In this document: in pieces, positions 5,371 through 58,434 of the stretch | Layout: every line of letters begins with the position of its first letter | How positions within the stretch are numbered: position 1 is the first letter of the stretch | Assembly (NCBI GenBank): GCA_002269645.1 | Contig: NIVC01000822.1 | Location: 124,001-188,000, forward strand | Source: Macrostomum lignano | Taxonomy: Eukaryota | DNA: 64,000 nt | Reading direction: 5' to 3' | Program-made: the position numbers and the translations under genes | The notes under the pieces: model-generated | The model's database searches: none | What the model was told of the DNA's origin: nothing | What the model saw: the letters and a program-made list of their open reading frames with translations, nothing else

Positions 5371-6606
5371 TCTTTGACTTTTGCGCCCAACTATGGCTAA
5401 TGCAGCTTTTTGGGCTTACTGGAACTTCGCTTAGCGCTTTTGTGTAGCCTTTCCCTGAACTGTGCCTCAGCACCCCTCTTATGCTTTCGCACAGAGCGCA
5501 CTAAAAAGAGGGCTGGCGGAAGAGATGTGTGGGGCAGGCAGTCATTGGCCGTACAACGTACAACCCTGACGCCTCTCGGCGAGTGAAGGGGTATGAGGGT
5601 GAAGACCGAAGCAGCGGAGATTCACTTCGACCCCCAGCCCACCCCATTTCGAAGCCCACGAATGTACATGCTATCAGACACTGTCCACGTAAAGCCACTG
5701 CATGCCTGACAAGCTCTGAAACGTTTTTCAGCCTAGCCATGAGAGTGCGTTCGTTTTGCCTCGACTGCCTTTCCTTTTTCTCTCTACCCAGACCACCCTA
5801 TGCCCCACTCAAACACGGTTGCAACAGAAACTACTGCGAGTCTGCGAGCTGCAGCCTCTGATGTTCAGAATTTGAGTCAGTTAAGACTGCAAGAGAATGA
5901 AGGCAGGCTGGGTAGAAACTATTCAACCCATCGCTTTTAACTGAACGCTTATTCGATGCATTTTTATTCGGGTTATTTCGGCTATAAAGTAACTACAGGG
6001 TACCTACCGATAAACTGGGGCACAAAAGGAATCTAGCTCGTAATATTTATTGTACAAGTATTACGCTCGTAGTGTGACAGCTTTCGAGCGTACTAGAAGT
6101 AAAAAAATACTTCAGTAGTAGGCTGAACACCATCTAATGGTTTAACCAGTTGACTTCCGATGCATTCCTTCACGATTTAATTACTTTGCTACAATTTTTA
6201 CCCTCAATTTGAACCCTTTTGTAAAGTGACAAATAATAGTAACAAAATTCGACACTCAAACTCAACGGGAGGGCAACGAAATTATTGTAAAAATCCAGGT
6301 GTTTACTCCAAACTAATCAAAAAAGATCTTCTCCATCTCCACTCAACAGGATCTCCCCAGAGCTCTGTGTCTGCACTACTGAGTTTGTCTCGCACATTTC
6401 TACCGCTTCCGGCATCAACCTTTCACAGGCCTGCATCCCCGCCCGCTCCGCCGTGCCGCCTGTCGCTTGTACCAAGGATTTCTCTATAACTAACCTAGTT
6501 ATAGTTATAGAAAAGTCTAGTTATAGAGAATTGCTTGTACCCAGCACCCGAAAATTTTATGCCCGCCATCTGTGACCCTGGATAGTGAGCAGGTGAGGGG
6601 GGGGGG

Positions 6607-21000: not shown

Positions 21001-24000
21001 TCATGTAAACAATCATAGAAGCGTCATGTAAAGAATCATAGGAGCGTCATGTAAAAAATCATAGAAGCGTCATGTAAAAAATAATAGAAGCGTCATGTAG
21101 AGAACCAAAGAAGCGTCATGTAAAAAATCATAGAAGCGTCATGTAATCAATCATAGAAGCGTCATGTAAAAAATCATAGAAGCGTCATGTAGAGAATCAA
21201 AGAAGCGTCATGTAAACAAACATAGAAGCGTCATGTAAAAAATTATAGAAGCGTCATGTAAAAAATTATAGAAGCGTCATGTAAAAAATCATAGAAGCGT
21301 CATGTAAACAATAATAGAAGCGTCATGTAAAAAATCATAGAAGCGTCATGTAAAAAATCATGAAAGCGTCATGTAAACAATCATGAAAGCGTCATGTAAA
21401 AAATCATAGAAGCGTCATGTAAAAAATCATAGAAGCGTCATGTAAAAAATCATAGAAGCGTCATGTAAACAATCAAAGAAGCGTCATGTAAAAAATCATA
21501 GAAGCGTCATGTAAACAATCATAGAAGCGTCATGTAAACAATCAAAGAAGCGTAATGTAAACAATCATAGAAGCGTCATGTAGAGAATCAAAGAAGCGTC
21601 ATGTAAACAAACATAGAAGCGTCATGTAAAAAATTATAGAAGCGTCATGTAAAAAATCATAGAAGCGTCATGTAAAAAATCATAGAAGCGTCATGTAAAC
21701 AATCATAGAAGCGTCATGTAAACAATCAAAGAAGCGTCATGTAAACAAACATAGAAGCGTCATGTAAACAATCATAGAAGCGTCATGTAAAAATCATAGA
21801 AGCGTCATGTAAAAAATCATAGAAGCGTCATGTAAAAAATCATAGAAGCCTTATATAAAAACTAATGGAAGTGTCATTTGAGAAATCATAGAAGCGTCAT
21901 GAAGAATAAAAGAAGCGTCATGTAAACAATCATAGAAGCGTCATGTAAAAAATCATAGAAGCCTTATATAAAAACTAATGGAAGTGTCATTTGAGAAATC
22001 ATAGAAGCGTCATGAAGAATAAAAGAAGCGTCATGTCAACAATCAAGAAGCGTCATGTAAACAATCAAGAAAGCGTCATGTAAAAAATCGTAGAAGCGTC
22101 ATGTAAAAAATCAAAGAAGCGTCATGTAAACAATCATGAAAGCGTCATGTAAAAAATCGTAGAAGCGTCATGTAAAAAATCATAGAAGCGTCGTGTAAAC
22201 AATCATAGAAGCGTTATGTAAAAAATCATAGAAGCGTCATGTAAACAATCAAAGAAGCGTCATGTAAAAAATCAAAGAAGCGTCATGTAAACAATCATAG
22301 AAGCGTCATGTAAAAAATCATGAAAGCGTCATGTAAACAATCATAGAAGCGTCATGTAAACAATCAAAGAAGCGTCATGTAAACAATCATAGAAGCGTCA
22401 TGTAAAAAATCATAGAAGCGTCATGTAGAGAATCAAAGAAGCGTCATGTAAACAATCAAAGAAGCGTCATGTAAAAAATCATAGAAGCGTCATGTAAACA
22501 ATCATAGAAGCGTCATGTAGAGAATCATAGAAGCGTCATGTAAAAAAGTCATAGAAGCGTCATGTAAAAAATCATAGAAGCGTCATGTAGAGAACCATAG
22601 AAGCGTCATGTAAAAAATCATAGAAGCGTCATGTAAACAATCATAGAAGCGTCATGTAAAAAATCATAGAAGCGTCATGCAGAGAATCGAAGAAGCGTCA
22701 TGTAAACAAACATAGAAGCGTCATGTAAAAAATCATAGAAGCGTCATGTAAAAAATCAAAGAAGCGTCATTTAAAAAATCATAGAAGCGTCATGAAAAAA
22801 TCATAGAAGCGTCATGTAAAAAATCATAGAAGCGTCATGTAAAAAATCATAGAAGCGTCATGTAAACAATCAAAGAAGCGTCATGTAAAAAATCATAGAA
22901 GCGTCATGTAAACAATCATAGAAGCGTCATGTAAACAATCAAAGAAGCGTAATGTAAACAATCATAGAAGCGTCATGTAGAGAATCAAAGAAGCGTCATG
23001 TAAACAAACATAGAAGCGTCATGTAAAAAATTATAGAAGCGTCATGTAAAAAATCATAGAAGCGTCATGTAAAAAATCATAGAAGCGTCATGTAAAAAAT
23101 CATAGAAGCGTCATGTAAAAAATCATAGAAGCCTTATATAAAAACTAATGGAAGTGTCATTTGAGAAATCATAGAAGCGTCATGAAGAATAAAAGAAGCG
23201 TCATGTAAACAATCATAGAAGCGTCATGTAAAAAATCATAGAAGCGTCATGTAAAAAATCATAGAAGCCTTATATAAAAAGTAATGGAAGTGTCATTTGA
23301 GAAATCATAGAAGCGTCAAGAAAAAAAGAAGCGTCATGTAAACAATCATAGAAGCGTCATGTAAAAATCATAGAAGCGTCATGTAAACAATCAAAGAAGC
23401 GTCATGTAAACAATCATGAAAGCGTCATGTAAAAAATCGTAGAAGCGTCATGTAAAAAATCAAAGAAGCGTCATGTAAAATATCATGAAAGCGTCATGTA
23501 AAAAATCGTAGAAGCGTCATGTAAAAATCATAGAAGCGTCATGTAAACAATCATAGAAGCGTCATGTAAAAAATCATAGAAGCGTCATGTAAACAATCAT
23601 AGAAGCGTCATGTAAAAATCATAGAAGCGTCATGTAAAAAATCATAGAAGCGTCATGTAAAAAATAATAGAAGCGTCATGTAAAACAAAGAAGCGTCATG
23701 TAAAAAATCATAGAAGCGTCATGTAATCAATCATAGAAGCGTCATGTAAAAAATCATAGAAGCGTCATGTAAGAATCAAAGAAGCGTCATGTAAACAAAC
23801 ATAGAAGCGTCATGTAAAAAATTATAGAAGCGTCATGTAAAAATTATAGAAGCGTCATGTAAAAAATCATAGAAGCGTCATGTAAACAATAATAGAAGCG
23901 TCATGTAAAAAATCATAGAAGCGTCATGTAAAAATCATGAAGCGTCATGTAAACAATCATGAAAGCGTCATGTAAAAAATCATAGAAGCGTCATGTAAAA

Positions 24001-27000
24001 AATCATAGAAGCGTCATGTAAAAAATCATAGAAGCGTCATGTAAACAATCAAAGAAGCGTCATGTAAAAAATCATAGAAGCGTCATGTAAACAATCATAG
24101 AAGCGTCATGTAAACAATCAAAGAAGCGTAATGTAAACAATCATAGAAGCGTCATGTAAAATCAAAGAAGCGTCATGTAAACAAACATAGAAGCGTCATG
24201 TAAAAATCATAGAAGCGTCATGTAAAAAATCATAGAAGCGTCATGTAAAAAATCATAGAAGCGTCATGTAAACAATCATAGAAGCGTCATGTAAACAATC
24301 AAAGAAGCGTCATGTAAACAAACATAGAAGCGTCATGTAAACAATCATAGAAGCGTCATGTAAAAAATCATAGAAGCGTCATGTAAAAAATCATAGAAGC
24401 GTCATGTAAAAAATCATAGAAGCCTTATATAAAAACTAATGAAGTGTCATGAAAATCATAGAAGCGTCATGAAAAAAAAGAAGCGTCATGTAAACAATCA
24501 TAGAAGCGTCATGTAAAAATCATAGAAGCGTCATGTAAAAAATCATAGAAGCCTTATATAAAAACTAATGAAGTGTCATTTGAGAAATCATAGAAGCGTC
24601 ATGAAGAATAAAAGAAGCGTCATGTAAACAATCATAGAAGCGTCATGTAAAAAATCATAGAAGCGTCAAGAAGAATAAAAGAAGCGTCATGTAAACAATC
24701 ATAGAAGCGTCATGTAAAAATCATAGAAGCGTCATGTAAAAATCATAGAAGCGTCATGTAAAAAATCATAGAAGCGTCATGTAAAAATCATAGAAGCGTC
24801 ATGTAAAAATCATAGAAGCGTCATGTAAAAAATCATAGAAGCGTCATGTAAACAATCATAGAAGCGTCATGTAAAAATCATAGAAGCGTCATGTAAACAA
24901 TCATAGAAGCGTCATGTAAAAAACCATAGAAGCGTCATGTAAAAAATCATAGAAGCGTCATGTAAAAATCAAGAAGCGTCATGTAAACAATCATAGAAGC
25001 GTCATGTAAAAATCATAGAAGCGTCATGTAAAAATCAAGAAGCGTCATGTAAAAAATCATAGAAGCGTCATGTAAAAATCATAGAAGCGTCATGTAAAAA
25101 ATCATAGAAGCGTCATGTAAAAATCATAGAAGCGTCATGTAAAAAATCATAGAAGCGTCATGTAAATCATAGAAGCGTCATGTAAAAATCATAGAAGCGT
25201 CATGTAAAAAATCATAGAAGCGTCATGTAAAAATCATAGAAGCGTCATGTAAAAAATCATAGAAGCGTCATGTAAAAAATCATAGAAGCGTCATGTAAAA
25301 AATCATAGAAGCGTCATGTAAAAATCATAGAAGCGTCATGTAAAAATCATAGAAGCGTCATGAAAAATCATAGAAGCGTCATGTAAAAATCATAGAAGCG
25401 TCATGTAAAAATCATAGAAGCGTCATGTAAAAAATCATAGAAGCGTCATGTAAAAAATCATAGAAGCGTCATGTAAAAATCATAGAAGCGTCATGTAAAA
25501 ATCATAGAAGCGTCATGTAAAAATCATAGAAGCGTCATGTAAACAATCATAGAAGCGTCATGTAAACAATCAAGAAGCGTCATGTAAAAATCATAGAAGC
25601 GTCATGTAAAAAATCATAGAAGCGTCATGTAAAAACATAGAAGCGTCATGTAAAAATCATAGAAGCGTCATGTAAAAATCATAGAAGCGTCATGTAAAAA
25701 TAGAAGCGTCATGTAAAAATCATAGAAGCGTCATGAAAAAAAAGAAGCGTCATGTAAAATCATAGAAGCGTCATGTAAAAATCATAGAAGCGTCATGTAA
25801 AAATCATAGAAGCGTCTTATAAAAAAAAGAAGCGTCATGTAAAAATCATAGAAGCGTCATGTAAAAAATCATAGAAGCGTCATGTAAACAATCATAGAAG
25901 CGTCATGTAAAAATCATAGAAGCGTCATGTAAAAAATCATAGAAGCGTCATGTAAAAAATCATAGAAGCGTCATGTAAAAATCATAGAAGCGTCATGTAA
26001 AAATCATAGAAGCGTCATGTAAAAATCATGAAGCGTCATGTAAACAATCATAGAAGCGTCATGTAAAAATCATAGAAGCGTCATGTAAACAATCATAGAA
26101 GCGTCATGTAAAAAATCATAGAAGCGTCATGTAAAAATCATAGAAGCGTCATGTAAAAAATCATAGAAGCGTCATGTAAAAAATCATAGAAGCGTCATGT
26201 AAAAATCATAGAAGCGTCATGTAAAAATCATAGAAGCGTCATGTAAACAATCATAGAAGCGTCATGTAAAAAATCATAGAAGCGTCATGTAAACAATCAT
26301 AAGAAGCGTCATGTAAAAAATCATAGAAGCGTCATGTAAAAAATCATAGAAGCGTCATGTAAAAAATCATAGAAGCGTCATGTAAAAAATCATAGAAGCG
26401 TCATGTAAACAATCAAGAAGCGTCATGTAAAAAATCATAGAAGCGTCATGTAAACAATCATAGAAGCGTCATGTAAAAAATCATAGAAGCGTCATGTAAA
26501 AAATCATAGAAGCGTCATGTAAAAATCAAAGAAGCGTCATGTAAACAATCATAGAAGCGTCATGTAAAAAATCATAGAAGCGTCATGTAAAATCATAGAA
26601 GCGTCATGTAAACAATCATAGAAGCGTCATGTAAAAAATCATAGAAGCGTCATGTAAACAATCATAGAAGCGTCATGTAAAAATCATAGAAGCGTCATGT
26701 AAAAAATCATAGAAGCGTCATGTAAAAATCATAGAAGCGTCATGTAAAAACATAGAAGCGTCATGTAAAAATCATAGAAGCGTCATGTAAAAATCATAGA
26801 AGCGTCATGTAAACAATCATAGAAGCGTCATGTAAAAAATCATAGAAGCGTCATGTAAAAATCATAGAAGCGTCATGTAAAAATCATAGAAGCGTCATGT
26901 AAAAATCATAGAAGCGTCATGTAAAAAATCATAGAAGCGTCATGTAAAAATCATAGAAGCGTCATGTAAACAATCAAGAAGCGTCATGTAAAAAATCATA

Positions 27001-29904
27001 GAAGCGTCATGTAAACAATCATAGAAGCGTCATGTAAAAATCATAAGCGTCATGTAAAAATCATAGAAGCGTCATGTAAAAATCATAGAAGCGTCATGTA
27101 AACAATCAAAGAAGCGTCATGTAAAAAATCATAGAAGCGTCATGTAAACAATCAAGAAGCGTCATGTAAAAAATCATAGAAGCGTCATGTAAAAATCATA
27201 GAAGCGTCATGTAAAAATCATAGAAGCGTCATGTAAAAATCATAGAAGCGTCATGTAAAAAATCATAGAAGCGTCATGTAAAAATCATAGAAGCGTCATG
27301 TAAACAATCATAGAAGCGTCATGTAAAAAATCATAGAAGCGTCATGTAAAAATCATAGAAGCGTCATGTAAAAATCATAGAAGCGTCATGTAAAAATCAT
27401 AGAAGCGTCATGTAAAAATCATAGAAGCGTCATGTAAAAATCATAGAAGCGTCATGTAAAAAATCATAGAAGCGTCATGTAAAAATCATAGAAGCGTCAT
27501 GTAAACAATCATAGAAGCGTCATGTAAAAAATCATAGAAGCGTCATGTAAAAATCATAGAAGCGTCATGTAAAAATCATAGAAGCGTCATGTAAAAAATC
27601 ATAGAAGCGTCATGTAAAAAATCATAGAAGCGTCATGTAAAAATCATAGAAGCGTCATGTAAACAATCAAGAAGCGTCATGTAAAAATCATAGAAGCGTC
27701 ATGTAAAATCATAGAAGCGTCATGTAAAAAATCATAAGAAGCGTCATGTAAACAATCATAGAAGCGTCATGTAAAATCATAGAAGCGTCATGTAAAAATC
27801 ATAGAAGCGTCATGTAAAAATCATAGAAGCGTCATGTAAAAATCATAGAAGCGTCATGTAAAAATCATAGAAGCGTCATGTAAACAATCATAGAAGCGTC
27901 ATGTAAAAATCATAGAAGCGTCATGTAAAAAACATAGAAGCGTCATGTAAAAATCATAGAAGCGTCATGTAAAAAATCATAGAAGCGTCATGTAAAAATC
28001 ATAGAAGCGTCATGTAAAAATCATAGAAGCGTCATGTAAAAATAAGTAAGAGCGTCATTAAAATCATAGAAGCGTCATGTAAAATAAAAGAAGCGTCATG
28101 TAAACAATCATAGAAGCGTCATGTAAAAAATCATAGAAGCGTCATGTAAAAATCATAGAAGCGTCATGTAAAAAACATAGAAGCGTCATGTAAAATCATA
28201 GAAGCGTCATGTAAAAATCATAAAGAAGCGTCATGTAAACAATCATAGAAGCGTCATGTAAACAATCATAGAAGCGTCATGTAAAAAATCATAGAAGCGT
28301 CATGAAAAAAATCATAGAAGCGTCATGTAAAAAATCATAGAAGCGTCATGTAAAAATCATAGAAGCGTCATGTAAAAATCATAGAAGCGTCATGTAAAAA
28401 TCATAGAAGCGTCATGTAAAAAATCATAGAAGCGTCATGTAAACAATCATAGAAGCGTCATGTAAAAAATCATAGAAGCGTCATGTAAAATCATAGAAGC
28501 GTCATGTAAAAAATCATAGAAGCGTCATGTAAAAATCATAGAAGCGTCATGTAAAAATCAAGAAGCGTCATGTAAACAATCATAGAAGCGTCATGTAAAA
28601 AATCATAGAAGCGTCATGTAAAAAATCATAAAAGCGTCATGTAAAAATCATAGAAGCGTCATGTAAAAATCATAGAAGCGTCATGTAAACAATCATAGAA
28701 GCGTCATGTAACAATCATAGAAGCGTCATGTAAAAATCATAGAAGCGTCATGTAAAAAATCATAGAAGCGTCATGTAAACATAGAAGCGTCATGTAAAAA
28801 TCATAGAAGCGTCATGTAAAAATCAATAGAAGCGTCATGTAAAAATCATAGAAGCGTCATGTAAAAATCAAGAAGCGTCATGTAAAAAACATAGAAGCGT
28901 CATGTAAAAATCATAGAAGCGTCATGTAAACAATCATAGAAGCGTCATGTAAAAATCATAGAAGCGTCATGTAAAAATCATAGAAGCGTCATGTAAAAAT
29001 CATAGAAGCGTCATGTAAAAATCATAGAAGCGTCATGTAAAAATCAAGAAGCGTCATGTAAAAATCATAGAAGCGTCATGTAAAAAATCATAGAAGCGTC
29101 ATGTAAAAATCATAGAAGCGTCATGTAAAAATCATAGAAGCGTCATGTAAACAATCAAGAAGCGTCATGTAAAAAATCATAGAAGCGTCATGTAAAAATC
29201 ATAGAAGCGTCATGTAACAATCATAAAGCGTCATGTAAATCATAGAAGCGTCATGTAAAAATCAAGAAGCGTCATGTAAAAAATCATAGAAGCGTCATGT
29301 AAAAATCATAGAAGCGTCATGTAAAAATCATAGAAGCGTCATGTAAAAATCATAGAAGCGTCATGTAAAAAATCATAGAAGCGTCATGTAAAAATCATAG
29401 AAGCGTCATTAAAAATAGAAGGTCATGTAAAAAATCATAGAAGCGTCATGAAAAATAAAGAAGCGTCATGTAAACAATCATAGAAGCGTCATGTAAAAAT
29501 CATAGAAGCGTCATGTAAAAATCATAGAAGCCTTATATAAAAATAGAAGCGTCATGTAAAAATCATAGAAGCGTCATGTAAAAAAAAGAAGCGTCATGTA
29601 AACAATCATAGAAGCGTCATGTAAAAATCATAGAAGCGTCATGTAAAAATCATAGAAGCGTCATGTAAAATCATAGAAGCGTCATGTAAAAAATCATGAA
29701 GCGTCATGTAAAAATCAAGAAGCGTCATGTAAAAATCATAGAAGCGTCATGTAAAAAATCATAGAAGCGTCATGTAAAAAATCATAGAAGCGTCATGTAA
29801 ACAATCATAGAAGCGTCATGTAAAAATCATAGAAGCGTCATGTAAACAATCATAGAAGCGTCATGTAAAAATCATAGAAGCGTCATGTAAAATCATAGAA
29901 GCGC
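18056..29904 (+). repeat. 23-bp satellite (TCATAGAAGCGTCATGTAAAAAA and variants), left array
   Basis: About 500 monomers by length; period 23 read directly; recurrent variant blocks define higher-order repeats. Confidence 0.98.
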
Positions 29905-30830
29905 NNNNNNNNNNNNNNNNNNNNNNNNNNNNNNNNNNNNNNNNNNNNNNNNNNNNNNNNNNNNNNNNNNNNNNNNNNNNNNNNNNNNNNNNNNNNNNNN
30001 NNNNNNNNNNNNNNNNNNNNNNNNNNNNNNNNNNNNNNNNNNNNNNNNNNNNNNNNNNNNNNNNNNNNNNNNNNNNNNNNNNNNNNNNNNNNNNNNNNNN
30101 NNNNNNNNNNNNNNNNNNNNNNNNNNNNNNNNNNNNNNNNNNNNNNNNNNNNNNNNNNNNNNNNNNNNNNNNNNNNNNNNNNNNNNNNNNNNNNNNNNNN
30201 NNNNNNNNNNNNNNNNNNNNNNNNNNNNNNNNNNNNNNNNNNNNNNNNNNNNNNNNNNNNNNNNNNNNNNNNNNNNNNNNNNNNNNNNNNNNNNNNNNNN
30301 NNNNNNNNNNNNNNNNNNNNNNNNNNNNNNNNNNNNNNNNNNNNNNNNNNNNNNNNNNNNNNNNNNNNNNNNNNNNNNNNNNNNNNNNNNNNNNNNNNNN
30401 NNNNNNNNNNNNNNNNNNNNNNNNNNNNNNNNNNNNNNNNNNNNNNNNNNNNNNNNNNNNNNNNNNNNNNNNNNNNNNNNNNNNNNNNNNNNNNNNNNNN
30501 NNNNNNNNNNNNNNNNNNNNNNNNNNNNNNNNNNNNNNNNNNNNNNNNNNNNNNNNNNNNNNNNNNNNNNNNNNNNNNNNNNNNNNNNNNNNNNNNNNNN
30601 NNNNNNNNNNNNNNNNNNNNNNNNNNNNNNNNNNNNNNNNNNNNNNNNNNNNNNNNNNNNNNNNNNNNNNNNNNNNNNNNNNNNNNNNNNNNNNNNNNNN
30701 NNNNNNNNNNNNNNNNNNNNNNNNNNNNNNNNNNNNNNNNNNNNNNNNNNNNNNNNNNNNNNNNNNNNNNNNNNNNNNNNNNNNNNNNNNNNNNNNNNNN
30801 NNNNNNNNNNNNNNNNNNNNNNNNNNNNNT
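29905..30830. other. Assembly gap (926 N)
   Basis: Run of N. Confidence 1.
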
Positions 30831-33800
30831 TTTACATGAGCTTCTATGATTTTTACACGACGCTTCTATGATTGTTTACATGACGCTTTCTATGATTGTT
30901 TACATGACGCTTCTATGATTTTTACATGACGCTTCTATGATTGTTTCATGACGCTTCTATGATTGTTTATATGACGCTTCTATGATTGTTTACATGACGC
31001 TTCTATGATTGTTTCATGACGCTTCTATGATTTTTACATGACGCTTCTATGATTTTTACATGACGCTTCTATGATTGTTTACATGACGCTTCTATGATTT
31101 TTTACATGAAGCTTCTATGATTTTTTACATGACGCTTCTATGATTTTTATATAACGCTTCTACGATTTTTTACATGTCGCTTCTATGATTGTTTACATGA
31201 TGCTTCTATGATTTTTTGCATGACGCTTCTATGATTGTTTCATGACGCTTCTATGATTTTTACATGACGCTTCTATGATTGTTTATATGACGCTTCTATG
31301 ATTGTTTACATGACGCTTCTATGATTGTTTCATGACGCTTCTATGATTTTTACATGACGCTTCTATGATTTTTACATGACGCTTCTATGATTGTTTACAT
31401 GACGCTTCTATGATTGTTTACATGACGCTTCTATGATTTTTACATGACGCTTCTATGATTTTTACATGACGCTTCTATGATTGTTTACATGACGCTTCAA
31501 GGATTTTTTACATGACGCTTCTACGATTTTGGCAGGACGATTCTATGACTTTACATGACGCTTCTATGATTTTTACATGACGCTTTTATGATTTTTACAT
31601 GGCGCTTCTATGATTGTTTACATGACGCTTCTATGATTTTTACATGACGCTTCTATGATTTTTACATGACGCTTCTATGATTGTTTACATGACGCTTCTA
31701 TGATTGTTTACATGACGCTTCTAGGATTGTTTACATGACGCTTCTATGATTGTTTACATGACGCTTCTAGGATTGTTTACGTGACGCTTCTACGATTGTT
31801 TACATGACGCTTCTATGATTGTTTACATGACGCTTCTATGATTGTTTCATGACGCTTCTATGATTGTTTACATGACGCTTCTACGATTTTGGCAGGACGA
31901 TTCTATGATTTTACATGACGCTTTTATGATTTTTACATGGCGCTTCTATGATTGTTTACATGACGCTTCTATGATTGTTTACATGACGCTTCTAGGATTG
32001 TTTACATGGCGCTTCTATGATTGTTTACATGACGCTTCTAGGATTGTTTACATGACGATTCTAGGATTGTTTACATGACGCTTCTATGATTGTTTACATG
32101 ACGCTTCTATGATTTTTACATGACGCTTCTATGATTGTTTACATGACGCTTCAAGGATTTTTTACATGACGCTTCTACGATTTTGGCAGGACGATTCTAT
32201 GATTTTACATGACGCTTCTACGATTTGTTACATGACGCTTCTATGATTTTTACATGGCGCTTCTATGATTGTTTACATGACGCTTCTAGGATTGTTTACA
32301 TGACGATTCTAGGATTGTTTACATGACGCTTCTATGATTGTTTACATGACGCTTCTATGATTTTTACATGACGCTTCTATGATTGTTTACATGACGCTTC
32401 TATGATTTTTACATGACGCTTCTATGATTTTTACATGACGCTTCTACGATTTTTTACATGACGTTTCGATGATTTTTACACGACGCTTCTATGATTGTTT
32501 CATGACGCTTCTATGATTGTTTACATGACGCTTCTATGATTGTTTACATGACGCTTCTATGATTTTAACATGACGCTTCTATGATTGTTTCATGACGCTT
32601 CTATGATTGTTTACATGACGCTTCTATGATTTTTACATGACGCTTCTATGATTGTTTATATGACGCTTCTATGATTGTTTACATGACGCTTCTATGATTG
32701 TTTCATGACGCTTCTATGATTTTTACATGACGCTTCTATGATTTTTACATGACGCTTCTATGATTGTTTTACATGACGCTTCTATGATTTTTACATGACG
32801 CTTCTATGATTTTTACATGACGCTTCTATGATTTTTACATGACGCTTCTATGATTGTTTACATGACGCTTCTATGATTTTTACATGACGCTTCTATGATT
32901 GTTTACATGACGCTTCTATGATTGTTTACATGACGCTTCTATGATTGTTTCATGACGCTTCTATGATTGTTTACATGACGCTTCTATGATTTTTACATGA
33001 CGCTTCTATGATTGTTTCATGACGCTTCTATGATTTTTACATGACGCTTCTATGATTGTTTCATGACGCTTCTATGATTTTTACATGACGCTTCTATGAT
33101 TTTTACATGACGCTTCTATGATTTTTACATGACGCTTCTATGATTTTTACATGACGCTTCTATGATTGTTTACATGACGCTTCTATGATTTTTACATGAC
33201 GCTTCTATGATTGTTTACATGACGCTTCTATGATTTTTAACATGACGCTTCTATGATTGTTTCATGACGCTTCTATGATTGTTTACATGACGCTTCTATG
33301 ATTTTTACATGACGCTTCTATGATTGTTTATATGACGCTTCTATGATTTTTACATGACGCTTCTATGATTGTTTCATGACGCTTCTATGATTTTTACATG
33401 ACGCTTCTATGATTTTTACATGACGCTTCTATGATTTTTACATGACGCTTCTATGATTTTTACATGACGCTTCTATGATTTTTACATGACGCTTCTATGA
33501 TTTTTACATGACGCTTCTATGATTGTTTACATGACGCTTCTATGATTTTTACATGACGCTTCTATGATTGTTTACATGACGCTTCTATGATTGTTTACAT
33601 GACGCTTCTATGATTGTTTCATGACGCTTCTATGATTGTTTACATGACGCTTCTATGATTTTTACATGACGCTTCTATGATTGTTTCATGACGCTTCTAT
33701 GATTTTTACATGACGCTTCTATGATTGTTTCATGACGCTTCTATGATTGTTTACATGACGCTTCTATGATTTTTACATGACGCTTCTATGATTTTTACAT

Positions 33801-35055
33801 GACGCTTCTATGATTTTTACATGACGCTTCTATGATTTTTTACATGACGCTTCTATGATTTTTACATGACGCTTCTATGATTGTTTACATGACGCTTCTA
33901 TGATTGTTTACATGACGCTTCTATGATTTTTACATGACGCTTCTATGATTGTTTACATGACGCTTCTATGATTGTTTACATGACGCTTCTATGATTGTTT
34001 CATGACGCTTCTATGATTTTTACATGACGCTTCTATGATTGTTTCATGACGCTTCTATGATTGTTTACATGACGCTTCTATGATTGTTTCATGACGCTTC
34101 TATGATTTTTACATGACGCTTCTATGATTGTTTACATGACGCTTCTATGATTTTTACATGACGCTTCTATGATTTTTACATGACGCTTCTATGATTGTTT
34201 ACATGACGCTTCTATGATTGTTTACATGACGCTTCTATGATTGTTTCATGACGCTTCTATGATTGTTTACATGACGCTTCTATGATTGTTTACATGACGC
34301 TTCTATGATTGTTTACATGACGCTTCTATGATTTTTACATGACGCTTCTATGATTGTTTCATGACGCTTCTATGATTGTTTACATGACGCTTCTATGATT
34401 TTTATGATGACGCTTCTATGATTGTTTACATGACGCTTCTATGATTTTTCATGACGCTTCTATGATTTTTACATGACGCTTCTATGATTTTTACATGACG
34501 CTTCTATGATTTTTACATGACGCTTCTATGATTTTTTACTTGATTTTTACGACGCTTCTATGATTGTTTACATGACGCTTCTATGATTGTTTACATGACG
34601 CTTCTATGATTTTTACATGACGCTTCTATGATTTTTCATGACGCTTCTATGACGCTTCTATGATTTTTACATGACGACGCTTCTATGATTGTTTATGACG
34701 CTTCTATGACATGACGCTTCTATGATTGTTTACATGACGCTTCTATGATTGTTTACATGACGCTTCTATGATTGTTTACATGACGCTTCTATGATTTTTT
34801 CTTGACGCTTCTATGATTTTTACATGACGCTTCTATGATTTTTACATGACGCTTCTATGATTTTTACATGACGCTTCTATGATTGACGCTTCTATGATTG
34901 TTTACATGACGCTTCTATGATTTTTACATGACGCTTCTATGATTTTTACATGACGCTTCTATGATTGTTTACAAATGACATGACGCTTCTATGATTTTTA
35001 CATGACGCTTCTATGATTGTTTACGCTTCTATGATTTTTACAGACGCTTCTATGA
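30831..35055 (-). repeat. Same 23-bp satellite in opposite orientation, right array
   Basis: TTTTTACATGACGCTTCTATGA units; private variant TTTTGGCAGGACGATT at about 31529, 31889 and 32182. Confidence 0.97.
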
Positions 35056-41292: not shown

Positions 41293-43180
41293 TGTCAGTT
41301 CGCCACTGTGTGGACACCTTGGCCAGACGAAGACATTGAAGCGGCTACGTGAACGATTCTGGAGGCTCGGATTAGCCCGTGTCACCGAGAACTTTATCAG
41401 TAAGTGCCGCGCCTGTCTTGAAAGTAAATCCCGAAGACGAGACCGAGTACCTGTACAGAGCTTCCCTGTGTGCGAAGTCCTGGGAAGAGTACATTGCGAC
41501 GTAGTAGGCCCAATTGCCCAGAAGAGCAAGAGCGGGAACCGCTACATCTTGACGCTATGCGACGCGACGTCGAAGTACCCGTTCGCCTATCCGATGAGGA
41601 ACCAGAAAGCCAAGACGGTCATCAAGATCCTGCAGGAGCGCTTGATCCCTGACTTTGGTGTACCATGCTGGATACACACTGATCAAGGAACCAATTTCAC
41701 TGGCTCAGCTTTCAAGAAGTTCTGCGACCTGTTTGGCATCCGGCATACGACGACAACACCGTACAATCCAGCTTCAAATGGGCAAGTCGAGAACCTCAAC
41801 AAGCAGCTGAAGAGTGTCCTCACCTGCCTCCTCGAGCGCAACCATAACGACTGGGACACCTTCCTCCCAGCCTGCTTGATGGCGCTCCGCTCTAGCGTAC
41901 ACCCGGTGACAGGTTTCACGCCTCACTACCTGGTGTTTGGTCGAGACTTTGGACTACCAATCGACAACGCGATCAAGAAGCTGCCGGAGTATGCCGATCT
42001 GCCTGACTATGTCAAGGACTTCCAGCGCCGCTTAGACGAAGCAACCGAACTGGCCAAAGACCGCCTGCATCTGCACCAGCAGCTGCGTGACGAGCACTAC
42101 TCAAACCTGCCCGCCGCCAAGAAGCTCCAACCTGGTGACCTGGTTTTCCTCAACAACCCGGTGCTCGAACCGGATGAAGCGGCGAAGTTCCATCGACCTC
42201 GCAAAGCGCTGTACGAGGTAGTCGAACCCAAGGGCGAGGTCGTCTACAAGATTCGCCGTAGAGTGCCAAACCCGCGAGCCAGGCTACTCTTCCCTGATGC
42301 CGACTACCAGCTGACTTCGGATCCAGAAGTCGACCAGGCCAAGAAGCGCCGCAGGTCGACTGATGCCCCGGATGGTGCAGGACCCGCGACCCTGACACCG
42401 ATCCCGGAGGACGATCCCGATGATGATGACGATGACGATGACGCATGGCCGGCCTTCCGGTGGCGCTTCCGGCCGTTGGCGATCCCGGATGTGCAGCCAG
42501 GAGGTGGACCGGTCACGACACTAGCGAACCAGGCAAGTGCATTTCGGCGTGAGCCACTGCCGTATGGTGATCGCCATGATGGTGTGCCTGGTTTGAATGC
42601 GTCTGCACATGTTGCTTCTTTTTCACCTGTCCATGCGTCCCCTTCTCCAGAACCTTTTTCTGCGGCGCAGTCTCCTGCGCCACCTTCTTGCACCACTCAG
42701 GTGGAAGCGTCTCCCGTACCAGTAGTGGTAGGTAGGCCAGTTAGGGATCGGAGGCCGCCGGAGAGGCTTCTGATTAGCGATCCTAGGGCCAAAACGTACG
42801 TCAGTCGCACCGCCCGCATGCGTGTGCACAAATTAAAACATTTCAGCGCAGCAATGCACAAGCGCCCTTATCAGGCGAACTCAAGCGCGTCCTCTGAGGA
42901 TGAGCAGGGTCGGCCTAGCCGGAGCCGCCACAGGCAGGGAACCCCGTCCTCCCCGGAGGTCATGGGTGTCCCGCGCCGACCTTTAGGGAGCGAGAGAGAC
43001 GCAACGACTCCCCATCACCCGAGATGCGACGGAGCCGACCTAGCCACCGAGCCCGAAAAACGGTCCGCGTGGAACTCCCCGAGGTCATTGACCTCACGGG
43101 TGACTCGCCGCCGGGCGATGCCCCGGTTCGCCGGCTCACGGCTCAGCGGCTGGCAGCTGCCCTTGCCTATGCTCAACTAG
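41293..43180 (+). CDS. Ty3/Gypsy integrase (5'-truncated pol) with long C-terminal extension
   Basis: GHLG..KTL..L..RFW..C..C zinc-binding region; rve motifs VHCDVVGP, IHTDQGTNF, NGQVENLN; RRPPERL tail. The annotated ATG at 41267 lies in the minisatellite and is not the true start. Confidence 0.92.
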
Positions 43181-43842
43181 AGCAGGAGGTGAGCCGCGGG
43201 TTACGCGCGGTCCGCCGCCAGATACGAGCCGCCTTTCCAGATCCCGACCCGGAGCCCGGCCACCTGGAGGCGCACCGAAATGATCTTAGCGAGGCCGTCG
43301 CCGGAGGCCCAAGGGACCCCCCGCAGCCAGGGTCCCCCATGTCCTTGGTCGAAGGCGCCCCGTCGCCGAGAGCCGGCCAAGAGGAATCGGCTGAGCCGGC
43401 CGGTCTGTGGGACGGCCTGACGGCCGCACTGAGCCGCGAGTTACCACGTGCGCCACCGTCAACGCCAGAGAATCCGCCAACGATGGCGAATGCCAGCACG
43501 CAAACGGCCGACCCGGAGCCAGCTTCGCCCGCCGACGAAGCGCGGGCGGCTCTGTTGATGGCCGGTGCTGGCCTGGCGCGCAACCTCCTGGTCGCCGCGG
43601 CTCGACACGGCCACTGGCCGCAGGTGTTCGCGGGTCCGGTATGGAGCAGCCTGCGCTGGACGACGAGGGAAGAACGCTCGGCCCTGTTCGAAGAGGCTGT
43701 TCGTCTGGGCGGGCCGGACTTGCAGCAACCGAATCGCCCATACGCTGTACACCTGGCGGCGATCGAGATCGCCCGGCATCTCGGCGGCAGTGATGCTGAC
43801 CTGCCGGCGGCCCTGGCCCGGCCGTCGATGCAGTATTTCTGA
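42854..43842 (+). CDS. Accessory 3' ORF of the Gypsy element, unknown function; probably one gene with a 1-nt frameshift near 42960-42985
   Basis: Open 272-aa frame 43024-43842 with EVIDLT motif. ATG at 42854 follows an AT-rich TTTCAG acceptor-like site. Confidence 0.55.
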
Positions 43843-44195
43843 AACAATGGTGACGAAGAAGCTGCAATTTAACTATGGTATTCAGGATGAAGTGATCTCG
43901 CCAACCCGCAACTCTCTCCCAGTTAGGGATGGAGATGCCTCCACGCGTGCTTAGGCGCCCCCCCCTGTTTTCTTTTCTCTGGTGGGCTGGCGCCTCCACT
44001 TCGTATTTAGGCGCCTTGCTAATAGCAGGCCGGCGCCCCTGCGGTAGCGGGCAACAACCTTTTTGGCCTGCCCAGCCAAGCAGTTAAAGACAGAAATTTT
44101 CCCGTTCATGTTTAAGTTGTTTCTCTATGGTCAGTAAATGCATGTTCATCATGTTTTAAATAAAGCGCGCGCCGCTTCACTCCGCCTTTTTATTT

Positions 44196-44207
44196 GAACG
44201 GGGAGAG
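44196..44207 (+). promoter_or_regulatory. Polypurine tract
   Basis: GAACGGGGAGAG directly before TGTAG. Confidence 0.7.
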
Positions 44208-45175
44208 TGTAGTGAGTCGCTAGTTTAGTTAGGCGCCGAGCTAGTCAGCTGTTGCCCTCGCCTTCTCCCAGGTTTCTGTCTGCCGCTGGGCAGTTGCCTG
44301 TCCCTCCCGCCTGTCCCCTGGCCTGTCCTCTGCCCGTTTGTCTGTCTGTCTGTTTGTCCTCGTTTGCCCCTTTTTGTCTCGTTTTCCCTTTTTGCAGTGC
44401 CCAGACAGCTTGGTCTGGCCTGCCTCTGTTTCGTTCTCTGTCAGGCATCTACAAATTTGGAGTGCCTTTCTGTTTTCCGGTCCCACGGTCACGAGTGCCT
44501 TCACTTGTGGGCCGTTTCCCCTTGTCATGTGAGCCAGTCACATGACAAGGCCCTCTTCCTTCTTTAGTCCAAAGTGCAATGATTTCATCATTGTACGCTG
44601 GGCTCGTGTTTATGGGGAGATCACGTGCGCCCGGACCCCCCTTGCCTCCTCTGAGGCAGGGCCCGCTTGTTTGTTGCTAAAAATAGCAACAGAGTCACTT
44701 ATGACGCTCAGCGGGGGCCTTTCGTGCTATGGTGCAATCGATCCTCCCTATAAATGCGGCCCTTCTCATGGCTTGGCTCAGACAAGCGTTTTTCCGCGTT
44801 CCGTTTCGTTCCTAGCGAACACTAAGTTGTGTGCCAAGTTGGCGCTTAAGTTGAACTCCAAGACTCCCGACTTTGCGCGTGACTGCCTCTGATTGTTCCT
44901 GCTATCAGCTAGCAGGCCAGCTCAGATCGCCCGAAGCTAGCACTTTCGCTCTCACCCCGCACCAGCCCGGCAGGGACTGCTGACGGTGGGCACCTCTGCG
45001 CGAGAAATGCTAAATCTGCACGAAGTGCGAGTCTCTTTCTCTCGTCTTAGTTATTTGCTTCTACGAGCTCAGCACCTCACCGAAGGCTGCGACTCTGCGA
45101 AGCTGGTGGCAGCACTACCAACGCTACTAGATCAACCCGGAGACTTCCCAGAGGAGCTCAAGCAACTGTACTTCA
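44208..45175 (+). mobile_element. LTR (968 bp)
   Basis: TG...CA termini bounded by a PPT on the left and a PBS on the right. Confidence 0.8.
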
Positions 45176-45176
45176 C

Positions 45177-45196
45177 TGGTGGCAGCGGTGGGATTC
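45177..45196 (+). promoter_or_regulatory. Primer binding site, tRNA-Leu
   Basis: TGGTGGCAGCGGTGGGATTC is complementary to the typical eukaryotic tRNA-Leu 3' end GAATCCCACCGCTGCCA-CCA. Confidence 0.85.
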
Positions 45197-45261
45197 CAAG
45201 ACCTACGGCTAGGCCACCCGAGACAAAATAAGAAACCACCAACAACAGCAACTGTACTTCA

Positions 45262-47689: not shown

Positions 47690-47899
47690 AGTGTTCCGCA
47701 GTGAAACTTTTCTCAGTTGTGCCTCACGCTGCAAGTTTATAACTTTCTAATTTTTACATTTTTCAAAAGAAGTTTTTGCTCTCGTCTCATCTCATTTCTT
47801 TTCATTTCATTTTCATTTCTTTTCATTTCATTTTCATTTCTTTTCATTTCATTTTCATTTCTTTTCTTTCAATATCTCGTTTCCTTTCATCTTCCTCCA

Positions 47900-48871
47900 A
47901 TGAACTATTTCTTCCCTGGCTTCTCTCCATACCCATCGATGTTTTTTTTCACACCCCTACCCAATTTGGCCGTATCCATACAACTGTCAACTGCAACTGC
48001 AACAGAGCCAACAGCAACGGCACGATGGGCAGCAGCCCCAAGAGCAGGCGCAGCCTGCGTTGTCACCAAAGGCGACCCGACCGCTCCCGAGATCCTGGAC
48101 GTCGTGGCGGTACGTGGAGCCTCGCCCAACTGCAGCTTTGACGAGGAAAGACGCGCGCTCGGTCTAGCTATTAACTGGCTCAATGCCCACCGTGCACCCG
48201 GCAGCGTGCTCATCTGTTCTGACAGCAGGGCACTCCTAGACGCTCTTCTTAGCTCCCGCCCAAATTGCCTGCTCCCGGACCTCTCTTGCGCTACTGCATC
48301 CATCACGCTTCAATGGGTCCCGGCACACTGCGGAATCATCAGCAACGAGGCAGCGGACGCAGCTGCCAAGGCCGCTGCTGCTGATGTCACTGCCGACACC
48401 GCTGTGGCCGCCACCTCTTTCCGCAGTGCAGCGGCAGCGATTCGTCGGGTGATCAGCGACCCTCCGCTGTCCCATGCCCGCACCGCCGCTGTCTACTGCG
48501 CGCTTAACCGCCAACGGGATCGGCAGGAGTTGCTGAATCGGCAGGACGCAGTGCTCCTGGCTAGACTCCGTGCTGGACATTGCAGTCTTCTTCGGGCCTA
48601 TAGCAGCATTGTCAACCCGACTGCCGACCCCGTTTGCCACCGCTGCAGGGAAGGCCCGGAAGACCTCGAGCACTAGCTCGGTTGCCAGGCCCTCCGGCAT
48701 CTGAGGCTCTCGATTTTCGACACGGACAGACTGGACCTCGGGGTCCTGACCGCCGCCCCAGCGAGGTCGGTGGCGCTAGCGAGACGCAGTCTCTGACTGT
48801 CCTCGGCGCCTATGCCCCAACAACAACAACAACAACAGCAGCAGCAGCATCAGCAGCAGCATCAGCAGCAT

Positions 48872-54830: not shown

Positions 54831-54880
54831 AAATTTAATTCGCCACGGGACGATACTGCAGTCACCAAATCTTCATCCCG

Positions 54881-57205
54881 ATGTCTTCTGGACTCGACTT
54901 CCGACTGGGGGAGATGCCGCTGTGCTACCCCGATGTCGAACAGTATTTCAATCGCCTCGGTTTCTACATTAGCGCAACGGAAAAGAATGACCAGAGCAAA
55001 GCCGTTCTACTTGCTACTTGTGGAGATGCCGCATTTTCACTGATTGAGACACTTGTGCAGCCAGAAGACGTTTTAAACGATACAAAGTGTACGTTCGATT
55101 TCATCAAAGAAGCGGTACTGAGCCACTTGAAACCCAAGCGCCTTCTTCACTACGACAGACATCTGCTACATACCATGGTCCAAATACAGGGTGAGTCGGT
55201 GACAAAGTTTTTGGAGAGACTGAAGACACAGGCCAACAAATGCGAATTCGGCAAACTGCGAGAAGAGTTAATTCTTTCTCAGTATATTTTCGGACTGGCT
55301 GATAATTCTCTGAAGCAAAAATTACTAGTGAAGGAAAAGCTGGATCTAGAGACTGCGGTTAAGGATAGTCTCTTATCGGAGTCCGTATCTCAAGCTACTG
55401 ATTCGAGCAAAACCGTCGCAGCAGTGCAGAAAACCACTCACAAGAAGACCGGCAGCAACCAAAAGTATCCAACGGTATCCAGGCCAATGCCAACAACGCC
55501 GAATCATTCTAAGTCTAGCTGCCATTCCTGTGGTAACCCGGGTCATCTTAAAAATACCTGCAAGTTCCGTAATGCGACATGTCACAAGTGCGGAAAAACC
55601 GGGCACATTGCCAGAGCATGCAGGTCCAACATCGGTGGCAGCAAGAAAGTCACGTACGCGGAAGTTGAAGCAACCGACGCTGATCCACCTGATTCAGCTG
55701 TGTACTCGGTGATCAAGGCTACTCCATGCGACGAACTCTGGAAAATAGTCTGCACAATCGGTGATTCCACAGTCCATATGTGCGTCGACTCTGGTAGTCA
55801 GGTAACAATTCTGCCAGTAACCATCGTAGAGCAAGCCGGATTGCACATGGTTGACGCGGACATTCGATCACTCAAAGTTTTCAGGGGAGCTTCAGTTTCC
55901 GTACGAGGCATGGCTAAGGACGTCACGATTGAGCTGAGAAACGGCAAAACGGCATGCGGAGACATATATGTCGGGGACCCATCTAGTCAAGCCATTTTGG
56001 GAATAAATTTTATTCGTGCCTTCAACATATTGACGGTAGACGAATTTCTGTGCCATCCAGTGCAGTGTGATGAAAATTCAAGATTCCAGGCCAGCTTTCG
56101 CCTGAAGGACGGGGCCTCTACCGATGGAATGTGCTTTCCTGCCAGATCCCTTCCGTTCTAAATTAAAACTTTGGTTGAACTGGAGCTGAAAAGACTGGAA
56201 AGTGCAGGCATCATCTACCCAGTTCACTCGCCTAAGGTATCGTGCCCTATTGTTCCTGTGTTGAAACCAGAAGGATCAAAGAGACCCATTAGACTGTGTG
56301 GAGACTATTCAGTCACTCTCAACAGACTGATAGACCGAGATCGATATCGACTGCCAACTTTGAAAGAAATCCTTCAAAAGATCCCAAATTCGAAAGTGTA
56401 TTCAGTGCTCGACCTCGAAGACGCATTCTTGCAGATTCCCCTAACGCCAGAAAGTCAGGATCTTACGTGTATTTCCACCCATGTAGGACATTTTGCCTTC
56501 CGCAAGTTACAATTTGGGGTATCGGCAGCACCACTGATATTTCAGGAAGTTATGGATATCTTGCTCAAAGGAATACCAGGCACTGCTTCTTATCAGGACG
56601 ACATCATTCTAGGCACTGAAACAATGGAGCAGCATCGACGATCCTGGTGCAAGTCAAGGAAAAACTGAAAAAGCATGGATTCAAGATCAATGAGAGTAAG
56701 ACTCAGGAGTGCAAGAAAGAAGTCACATTTCTGGGATTTCTCCTCCGAGATGGGAAACTTTTGCCTGATCCTGCAAGAGTGGAAGCTCTATCCAACTTGT
56801 CAGAGCCAAAAGACCGGGATCAATTGAGAAGTGCTATATGCACCTTAAGACACTACGGGATTTTTTGTCGGAACTTCTCTATGATCGCCAAGCCGCTCTA
56901 TTACCTCCTAAAGAAAGGGGTTCAGTGGAAATGGACTGTCGTTCACTCAAGTGCGTTCTCTCAACTGAAAGCTGCTGTAACGGAAGGTCGAATCGTTTCT
57001 TATGATATAAAAAGGCCGTTATTTCTAACCTGCGACGCTTCTCAGAGTGGAGTCGGATTTGTGCTGTCCCACGACACGAACCAAAAAGAAGTTGTATGGC
57101 TGGGAAGCAGAGTTTTGACCAAGGCTGAGGCCAACTACGCCAACATTGAGCGGGAGGCTCTTGCAATTATCGAGGGTGTAAAATATTTTCATCAATTTCT
57201 GGCCA
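54881..57205 (+). pseudogene. Decayed Ty3/Gypsy gag-pol (Gag, two CCHC knuckles, protease, RT, partial RNase H)
   Basis: CHSCGNPGHLKNTC, CHKCGKTGHIARAC, VDSGSQVT, RLCGDY, LQFGVSAAP, YQDDI, CDASQSGVG, EREALAII. In-frame TAA at 56159, frameshift near 56645, truncated near 57205. Confidence 0.93.
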
Positions 57206-57404
57206 GAGCGACCAGAGCGTGGTTACATCAAGACAGTGAAATTAATCGTATTAAAATGAAATTTACAGGTTCAGTGATCTTCTTATGCCTAAAAGTCATC
57301 CTCTTGCTCAGCTTTTTAGTGCTTATAAATGAAATTCCCATCTGTTTTGCGAATTCCCTACCATCTGCTAACTCGATTAGCAACATTCCTCCATTAGAGG
57401 ATTT

Positions 57405-57665
57405 CACCATCAACAGCATTCTCCCATCAGCAGAATTCCCCCATCAACAGCATTCCCCCATCAACAGAATTCCCCTATCAACAGCATTCCCCCATCAGCA
57501 GAATTCCCCCATCAGCAGCATTCCCCCATCAACAGCATTTCCCCATCAGCAGCATTCCCGCATCAGCAGAATCCCCCCATCAGCAGCATTCCCCCATAAA
57601 CAGAATTCCCCCATCAACAGCATTCCCCCATCAGCAGCATTCCTCCATCAGCAGCATTCCCCCAT
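57405..57665. repeat. 17-bp minisatellite (CCCCCATCAGCAGCATT)
   Basis: Period 17 read directly; follows the Gypsy truncation. Confidence 0.9.
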
Positions 57666-58434
57666 TAACGCAGCTCAGTCTGTTAAGCAACGTAGTTAAG
57701 CAATAGATCAGTCACTATATTAGTTCAGAAACTCAGTGAGTCAATAATTTCCTACTTATTTAAAGACTCTCCTACTCAGCCCAAAGGCTTTCTACTTTGT
57801 CATGATAATTAAGACAGTTAAATTGAATCGATAATGTACGCGTTTAATAAGTGGTGCTATTAAAATTGAAAAGACGGAAGACATCATTCAGGACTTTCAA
57901 CTTCAGTTTAACTCTTTTTATGGCTTCAGTGCGAATGTAACGTGCACTTTACTATATTATAAATTTAGCCATAGTGGAAAGTCCCGCCAGGAGCTGGAGT
58001 CTCGTAGAATACTTGTACATCAATACATCAACTAAATGCGTATAAATTACTCATAGTAGCAGGTAAAATACAGTCTCCAGAGTAAAAATAAGTATGAATA
58101 AGCTAGTTAGTATTCTACAGAATCAGATATTGAACAGAGAATTTCCTGATTTTTTTCGCGGAATATAGCATTATAGTAGAATTTTTCTTCATATATAGCT
58201 GGCGCACATTTACTGTGATGCTGGGTGAAAAGCTGTGATGGTGGGCACCAGCATTATTGAAACTAATTGAAATTAATAACTGCTCAATAACTGCGGCTGT
58301 ACTGGTATTAAGCATCTTGGGGGGTTTGATAAAGGTATTGCCTTAAATATAAGCTATTTAAAAATATTAAAAATAAAAATAAAATAGGATGCATATAATG
58401 AGACTAAGGGCTTATATGCATATAAATCTGTTGA

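Follow-up and report, generated by a model that had tools for sequence, protein, structure and literature searches.

Results

A damaged Gypsy copy with a third gene after pol

The window analyzed here, a stretch of 64,000 nucleotides from Macrostomum lignano contig NIVC01000822.1, contains a member of a young Gypsy family in which an accessory open reading frame, ORF3, lies between pol and the 3' LTR (Table 1). This copy is truncated at its 5' end at 41296, inside the integrase, and its frame is broken; alignment to sister copies indicates two losses, of 33 nt (near 42282) and of 64 nt (near 42984). Integrase domains are recognized by Pfam 5' of the accessory ORF.

Searches of the M. lignano genome gave 50 DNA matches and 101 protein matches, and 76 stretches of ~10 kb were taken for study. 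These 76 loci cover part of the 101 protein matches, and every one of them contains element sequence on the pol side or the LTR side. An initial annotation of this locus, made from the sequence alone, had allowed for the possibility that ORF3 is a fragment of a host gene; the origin of all 76 loci from the element, together with profile matches that are themselves element copies, speaks against this. Sister copies with open frames were recovered. One of these, L031, encodes gag with a zinc knuckle followed by a PR-RT-RH-IN frame of 2139 aa (Pfam; the protease match is weak, E 0.079). By this order of domains, and by the paired LTRs, a primer-site-like tract and a polypurine tract, the element classifies as a Ty3/Gypsy LTR retrotransposon. 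SCAN-bearing fish elements are among the relatives, a possible hint towards the Gmr1/Osvaldo clade. Proteins identical to two of the modules are deposited at NCBI as M. lignano hypothetical proteins.

Of the first 20 loci, 11 have LTR pairs with an identity of 98-99.9% and, judged by the near-identical pairs of many copies, the family is young. Several copies, including the window copy (45161-45261) and the 3' LTR of L032, have a relic LTR end and a primer-site-like stretch before the true end, and the LTRs appear to have grown by taking in leader sequence.

Table 1. Features of the element copy, in positions of the window
Feature	Position	Strand	Evidence and remarks
3' part of pol	41296..42532	+	Integrase zinc finger, core (41483-41770) and C-terminal tail; Pfam rve and Integrase_H2C2; sister-copy alignment
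GC-AG intron, 314 nt	42533..42846	+	CAG|GCAAGT ... TTTCAG|CGCAG; precisely removed in C1069, C2766 and C1341; P0006 stops at the donor
Splice acceptor	42827..42846	+	YAG|CG(C/A)AG(A/C)AATG, common to lineages; CDS P0005 begins 1 nt after
ORF3 accessory gene	42854..43842	+	Open sister copies encode 350 aa, the various lineages 350-470 aa; frame disrupted here by the 64-nt loss near 42984
Type-B SIM-like VIDLT	43084..43098	+	Followed by D-S-P and a VRRL motif; class as in PMC4161520
Conserved amphipathic-looking segment QEVSRGLRAVRRQI	43183..43224	+	Alignment; putative helix
Second acceptor-like AG	43239..43240	+	TTTCCAG|A; counterpart joined to the same GC donor in C3306
W-x-x-L-x-x-x-L segment and PP[NSTP][ST]P	43408..43467	+	PP[NSTP][ST]P in 12/12 lineages
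LC8/DYNLL1-type anchor NASTQTAD	43489..43512	+	Motif rules in PMC6607443
All-helical C-terminal domain	43510..43839	+	~95 aa predicted folded; AlphaFold2 mean pLDDT 90, pTM 0.82
Two 3'UTR motif copies TTAGGCGCC...GGC(C/T)GGCGCC, 6-bp stem	43951..44039	+	29 instances aligned
AATAAA	44159..44164	+	49-51 nt ahead of the LTR; 3' edge of the variable cassette
Polypurine tract	44197..44207	+	Read in sequence
3' LTR	44208..45261	+	TGT...TTCA; relic LTR end and primer-binding-site-like stretch inside, 45161-45195

Other features of the window were also recorded. Two long ORFs of 440 and 359 aa at 54839-57696 look like parts of the gag and pol of another LTR element, and a fragment containing RNase H at 47705-48673 (Pfam RNase_H, E 5e-5) is probably derived from a non-LTR element. 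A 22-23-bp satellite with >700 copies extends from 18059 to 35055, on opposite strands flanking an assembly gap at about 29900-30830. On the minus strand, at 4630-5415, a 262-aa frame has Cys/His spacing like that of a zinc-finger protein exon.

ORF3 is the in-frame end of Pol

The initial annotation described a non-env accessory ORF with an ATG at 42854 that encodes the SUMO-interacting motif (SIM) VIDLT, and lies between a splice acceptor and an AATAAA. The VIDLT, the acceptor AG (42845-42846) and the AATAAA ahead of the LTR were all found where it had placed them. The ATG is present as well, but it sits in the pol frame, which stops at 43180 and does not read into VIDLT, because the 64 nt missing near 42984 put the motif out of the ATG frame in this copy. 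The ORF is not free-standing: in open sister copies ORF3 runs as the in-frame end of Pol with no stop between them, and continuous Pol-ORF3 frames reach 2139 aa in L031 and 2206 and 2215 aa in two distant lineages. The description of the protein as unrelated to env holds, as ORF3 has no transmembrane segment and no Pfam match, and its hydropathy and Cys counts do not fit the signal peptide, transmembrane segment and Cys-rich ectodomain of an env. The best 19-residue hydropathy window scores 0.75-1.68 in 17 open copies and lies inside the folded domain or under threshold, and the ORF3 of type A is without Cys.

A variable cassette with signs of purifying selection

Compared per 100 nt, types A and C have an identity of 92-100% as far as the ATG, of 48-79% between the ATG and the AATAAA, and of 94-100% beyond; at the level of sequence identity, this alignment shows the ATG and the AATAAA to be the limits of a variable cassette. 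In 14 of 17 copies the identity of RT is 98-100% (one other is misaligned at a frameshift and two are without RT), and the identity to type A of the ORF3 modules from other lineages is 28-62%. Expressed as dS, the divergence is 0.057 for RT compared to 1.67 for the module. For the modules, the Nei-Gojobori method gives a dS of 1.0-3.0 for 15 of 16 pairs and a dN/dS of 0.19-0.41 for all 16, with dN/dS values of 0.06-0.14 for the C-terminal domain in closer pairs; these estimates are subject to saturation where dS is >1 and to uncertain alignment of disordered sequence. The initial annotation had also allowed for a lack of conservation of the ORF or its motif among copies; the dN/dS values, and the presence of [VI]DLT in most lineages, speak against this. 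The comparisons support the view that ORF3 is an accessory gene, other than env, that is conserved and subject to purifying selection. Conflict among RT, IN and C-terminal-domain trees was sought in 11 copies and none was found; because the trees are compatible, it is the disparity in rates alone that suggests exchange of cassettes.

Probable splicing at a GC donor within pol

According to the initial annotation, ORF3 would have its own spliced mRNA, with a joint from the LTR to 42847. Use of the acceptor is backed by intron-less genomic copies and by public gene models, but the partner that was found is a GC donor inside pol (42533) rather than the LTR, and no LTR-to-42847 joint was found among the contig joints listed. 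The exact donor-acceptor joint occurs at three genomic places, compared to 105 places with an intact donor. The donor exon is without the following G at four places, and in all four the joint ends at a YAG, one being the second acceptor inside the module. Two of the junction copies, C1069 and C2766, have another deletion in common, and the joints therefore represent three events. In two junction copies both LTRs and the primer site are retained, which is what reverse transcription of a spliced RNA would be expected to leave. At the joints there is a microhomology of 3-4 nt (CAG), so that a deletion at the DNA level is possible for any single junction copy. A fourth, mismatched match to the joint is unrelated DNA, and the first junction in L106/L115 was ruled out as a splice, as it has no AG. 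A search for a leader-joined retrocopy returned eight matches, none of them element-derived.

Donor and acceptor could both be placed in 51 of 77 sequences; the intron is 311 or 314 nt long in 34 of these and 310-318 nt in the other 17. Through the intron, the pol frame is stop-free in all 34 copies of 311 or 314 nt, and the other frames contain 2-14 stops; the remaining 17 introns mostly have stops in every frame. The stretch encoded by the intron shows fast protein evolution, with a dN/dS of about 0.4-1.2. Past the joint, the pol frame terminates after 9-68 codons and the ATG, 7 nt on, is in a different frame; splicing would thus cut the module off Pol. In type D copies (L037-L039, at G000:C1522, C1600 and C695), an A-rich change in front of the acceptor ends pol before ORF3 is reached and adds a second AG.

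Public gene models follow both splice sites. The CDS P0006 corresponds to copy C640 over 709 aa and departs from it at the donor, and the CDSs P0005, P0001 and P0003 begin 1, 7 and 10 nt past the acceptor, with the genomic frame open for 500 codons upstream. A published annotation is transcript-based and trims 5' ends at trans-splice sites (PMC5730564). We infer that these four records stem from that annotation and that the acceptor at 42846 is probably trans-spliced. In a comparison of L031 with four contig sets that are presumably RNA, the joints listed included none at the acceptor or from the LTR; one contig departs from L031 precisely at the donor (L031:2925), a weak hint of splicing.

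A SIM, an LC8-type anchor and other motifs

VIDLT has the hydrophobic-I/V-D-L-T form of a type-B SIM, a class in which the Asp is critical (PMC4161520); the Asp is at position 3, the motif lies outside folded domains, and SUMO binding is predicted. The core [VI]DLT is found in 9 of 12 lineage representatives, compared to 0.07 expected from shuffles (neither this value nor the one for TQT below is a probability, because the patterns were partly tuned after inspection and the lineages are related), and it occurs nowhere else in the 2139-aa Pol. The nine comprise VIDLT (5), FIDLT (2), YIDLT (1) and CIDLT (1). Between types A and B, three of the five SIM codons and the neighbours of the T codon differ with the amino acids unchanged. 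The core is absent from L099, L118 and L113, and L116, the sister of L113, has IIDLT. Its absence from L099, L118 and the related family L167/L169 indicates that the SIM is not essential to the gene. Among 79 related integrase tails, VIDLT occurs in one, there within an RT piece.

ORF3 also contains an LC8-type anchor, which is new here and absent from the initial annotation. The pattern [AGS][TCI]Q[TA], fitted post hoc, matches in 12 of 12 lineages; plain TQT is found in 7 of 12, with 0.8 expected, and 9 of 12 have an acidic residue at -4. These features match the published rules for LC8 anchors, and the same source cautions that many TQT peptides fail to bind LC8 (PMC6607443); the anchor of ORF3 has suitable flanks and lies in a low-complexity region, and by these features the protein is a predicted LC8 client. 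The motifs persist where flanking identity is ~30%. Among the first 130 residues of ORF3, 21-30 are Arg. The M. lignano genome encodes LC8 and SUMO-like proteins, and SUMO-like genes are seen as inverted pairs on several contigs (G000:C1551, C1565 and C2589).

The C-terminal domain and related families

The initial annotation considered the C-terminus possibly folded, and AlphaFold2 confidently predicts a helical domain there. A profile search over 1.84 billion proteins gave four matches, three of which are M. lignano element proteins; the fourth, P0004, is a chance match to a repeat protein. Foldseek gave no match at E<=0.001 among PDB and viral models. In a structural comparison (VIA), the best match had a Z of 5.9 for the ORF3 domain (rmsd 3.9, 91 aligned) and of 6.7 for the sister domain described below; cullin repeats recur at Z 4-6.5, inside the range common for helical bundles. 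The PDB sequence search, Pfam and ESM Atlas yielded no usable match, blanks that do not establish novelty. A word-indexed search with A1 was likewise blank and is given no weight, since its database contains identical proteins.

A sister Gypsy family, 59% identical in the integrase, has a pol that stops 0-8 nt before a separate ORF3 of 240-290 aa. A conserved YAG lies 13-14 nt before the ORF3 ATG of this family, and the LTR follows its AATAAA at a distance of about 50 nt. A hydrophobic-acidic, SIM-like core is found in 10 of 10 aligned sister ORF3s (pattern fitted afterwards), and a helical end domain is predicted with a pLDDT of 86. These ORF3s (L146:2033-2902, L151-L166 and L171, for example at G000:C38) are acidic, with a helical domain that has no Pfam match. 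Homology to the ORF3 domain was considered and is unproven: the order of helices is the same, but the hhalign E of 0.58 does not improve on reversed or shuffled controls. A third family (L167:2600-4999 and L169:1478-2398) carries an in-frame homolog of the C-terminal domain without VIDLT, detected with E values of 1.8e-6 and 3.5e-5 in a search of 22 loci. Either a PHD (PF00628) or a zf-CW (PF07496) domain is found on Pols of related Gypsy elements.

Discussion

We tentatively favor, at a little short of an even chance, the interpretation that ORF3 is an accessory protein of the nucleus, produced as a Pol fusion and also in free form, which docks on chromatin complexes containing SUMO and LC8 and counters silencing. 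Unspliced RNA would yield the Pol-ORF3 fusion, and a short mRNA extending from the acceptor to the AATAAA would yield free ORF3, probably via spliced-leader trans-splicing. The Arg-rich start would bring ORF3 to the nucleus, the SIM would dock it on SUMOylated chromatin proteins, LC8 would dimerize it, and the helical domain may bind a host factor or the repeated GGCGCC motif of the element. Recombination between co-packaged RNAs could keep old cassette variants on a near-identical pol, and the persistence of such variants would be in keeping with a part that is in conflict with its host. In Drosophila, SUMO and LC8 both act in co-transcriptional piRNA silencing (PMC8490990). The silencing complex invoked for ORF3 is that of Drosophila, and by analogy an anti-silencing role may be proposed, with which the LC8-type motif would fit.

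An alternative that we consider unlikely, though credible, is that the Pol-ORF3 fusion is the main product and that the module stays on the processed integrase and steers insertion to SUMOylated chromatin. In this case, the cassette variants would aim at different host partners, and splicing would yield an integrase without the tail. The passage from pol to the module without a stop, and the open pol frame in 34 of 34 introns of 311 or 314 nt, fit a role as an integrase tail equally well; PHD or zf-CW domains on related Gypsy Pols and the use of SIMs by HIV-1 integrase for cofactor binding and nuclear localization (PMC10144533) are also consistent with it. However, the acceptor, ATG and AATAAA are kept as in a separate last exon, public gene models begin at the acceptor, the pol of the sister family stops just ahead of a separate ORF3, and the stretch encoded by the intron is fast-evolving.

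It is quite unlikely that free ORF3 acts in the manner of Rev or CERV, binding a stem in the 3'UTR via its Arg-rich start, oligomerizing, and exporting the intron-retaining genomic RNA. The retained intron and the Arg content of the start would suit such a factor, and the CERV protein of Cer1, made from a spliced mRNA, offers a precedent (PMC10309623). The stem itself is repeated and shows some covariation: across the aligned instances 99.4% of cells are paired, two of the six pairs have changes on both sides, and each 3'UTR has one or two GGCGCC stems. Yet the stem lies 3' of the acceptor, so that spliced and unspliced RNAs would both have it; the 171-nt stem region folds no better than shuffles (z -0.76), Rfam gave sub-threshold matches only, and no leucine-rich export signal was identified. 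The motif may instead be a DNA site, as TTAGGCGCC, which is repeated in all lineages examined, recurs near the start of the LTR at 44229. Export would also leave the SIM and LC8 motifs unexplained.

We consider it very unlikely that ORF3 is a transactivator or another nuclear helper outside silencing, for example one that brings a host co-activator to the LTR. Its position, its disorder with short motifs, and the W-x-x-L-x-x-x-L segment resemble viral transactivators. However, no DNA-binding family in Pfam was matched, and the LTRs do not co-vary with the modules among types A-C: because these LTRs are 91-95% identical although the modules differ strongly, a module matched to its own LTR is disfavored. 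Least credible is the view that, although the gene is real, both VIDLT and TQT would be incidental and microhomology deletion would have produced the junction copies. The loss of the SIM in some lineages, the CAG microhomology and the 227 YAG sites in 7.9 kb would allow this view. Against it, the three events have their 5' breakpoint in common, at a site that is one of just four donor-like sites in the same 7.9 kb, P0006 uses that site, and the SIM and TQT persist at ~30% surrounding identity.

Returning to the counter-silencing interpretation, a more specific form of it, which we hold to be rather doubtful, is that the modules are an exchangeable allelic series of proteins that would mimic a host co-transcriptional scaffold through SUMO and LC8. 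They would be delivered by two routes, as part of Pol in the particle and in free form by spliced-leader trans-splicing, and would end in a helical domain of an undescribed family.

Non-env ORF3s, CERV and VANC are already known (PMC5408684, PMC10309623, PMC6719617). As in M. lignano, the ORF3s of bdelloid rotifers are third genes at the Ty3/gypsy env position, modular, and expected to be spliced units (PMC5408684). Those described there are GDSL, DEDDy, transmembrane or coiled-coil proteins, whereas the ORF3 of M. lignano is a disordered hub of motifs with a small helical domain, is in frame with pol, and has many old variants on one pol. CERV of Caenorhabditis elegans Cer1 is likewise a lineage-restricted, fast-evolving regulatory protein from the spliced mRNA of an LTR retrotransposon; it has exons in common with gag, H, M and G domains, and a Cys loop (PMC10309623). 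Unlike CERV, ORF3 follows pol and carries a SIM and TQT, and type A is without Cys. The VANC21 and VANC6 proteins of Arabidopsis VANDAL elements are also element-encoded accessory proteins with family-specific variants and a short motif repeated in the element; they belong to a plant DNA transposon and act on DNA methylation, as shown experimentally, whereas for ORF3 an anti-silencing role is only proposed (PMC6719617).

The Panoramix/PICTS-SFiNX complex of Drosophila uses LC8 dimerization and the SUMO pathway, both partners predicted for ORF3 (PMC8490990). It is a host silencing complex, and its likeness to ORF3 is by predicted partners, with no relation in sequence claimed. C-terminal integrase extensions, such as PHD and zf-CW domains and the SIMs of HIV-1 integrase (PMC10144533), likewise give Pol an end that faces chromatin or SUMO. 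The Pol tail of M. lignano extends 659 aa past the core, compared to 35-632 aa in 79 relatives and, unlike these extensions, comes with an acceptor, an ATG and a poly(A) signal of its own, and splicing can remove it.

A description of this ORF3, or of a SIM/LC8 accessory protein of any LTR element, was not found in the open-access literature, and the available part of a paper on M. lignano LTR elements does not mention an additional ORF, splicing, accessory proteins or SUMO (PMC12801592). Proven transposon-encoded suppressors of silencing are few, and those covered in the reviewed literature are from plants (PMC6719617). The family described here could provide a testable animal candidate for such a suppressor, in a host with transgenesis. 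This candidate offers two short motifs that point to possible partners and a small domain predicted to fold, together with naturally occurring variants that all use a single replication machine. By splicing in one case and fusion in the other, a single frame would compactly supply both an accessory protein and a tailed integrase. If its function is instead integration targeting or RNA export, ORF3 would still represent a family of accessory genes that is undescribed in the Gypsy elements of flatworms.
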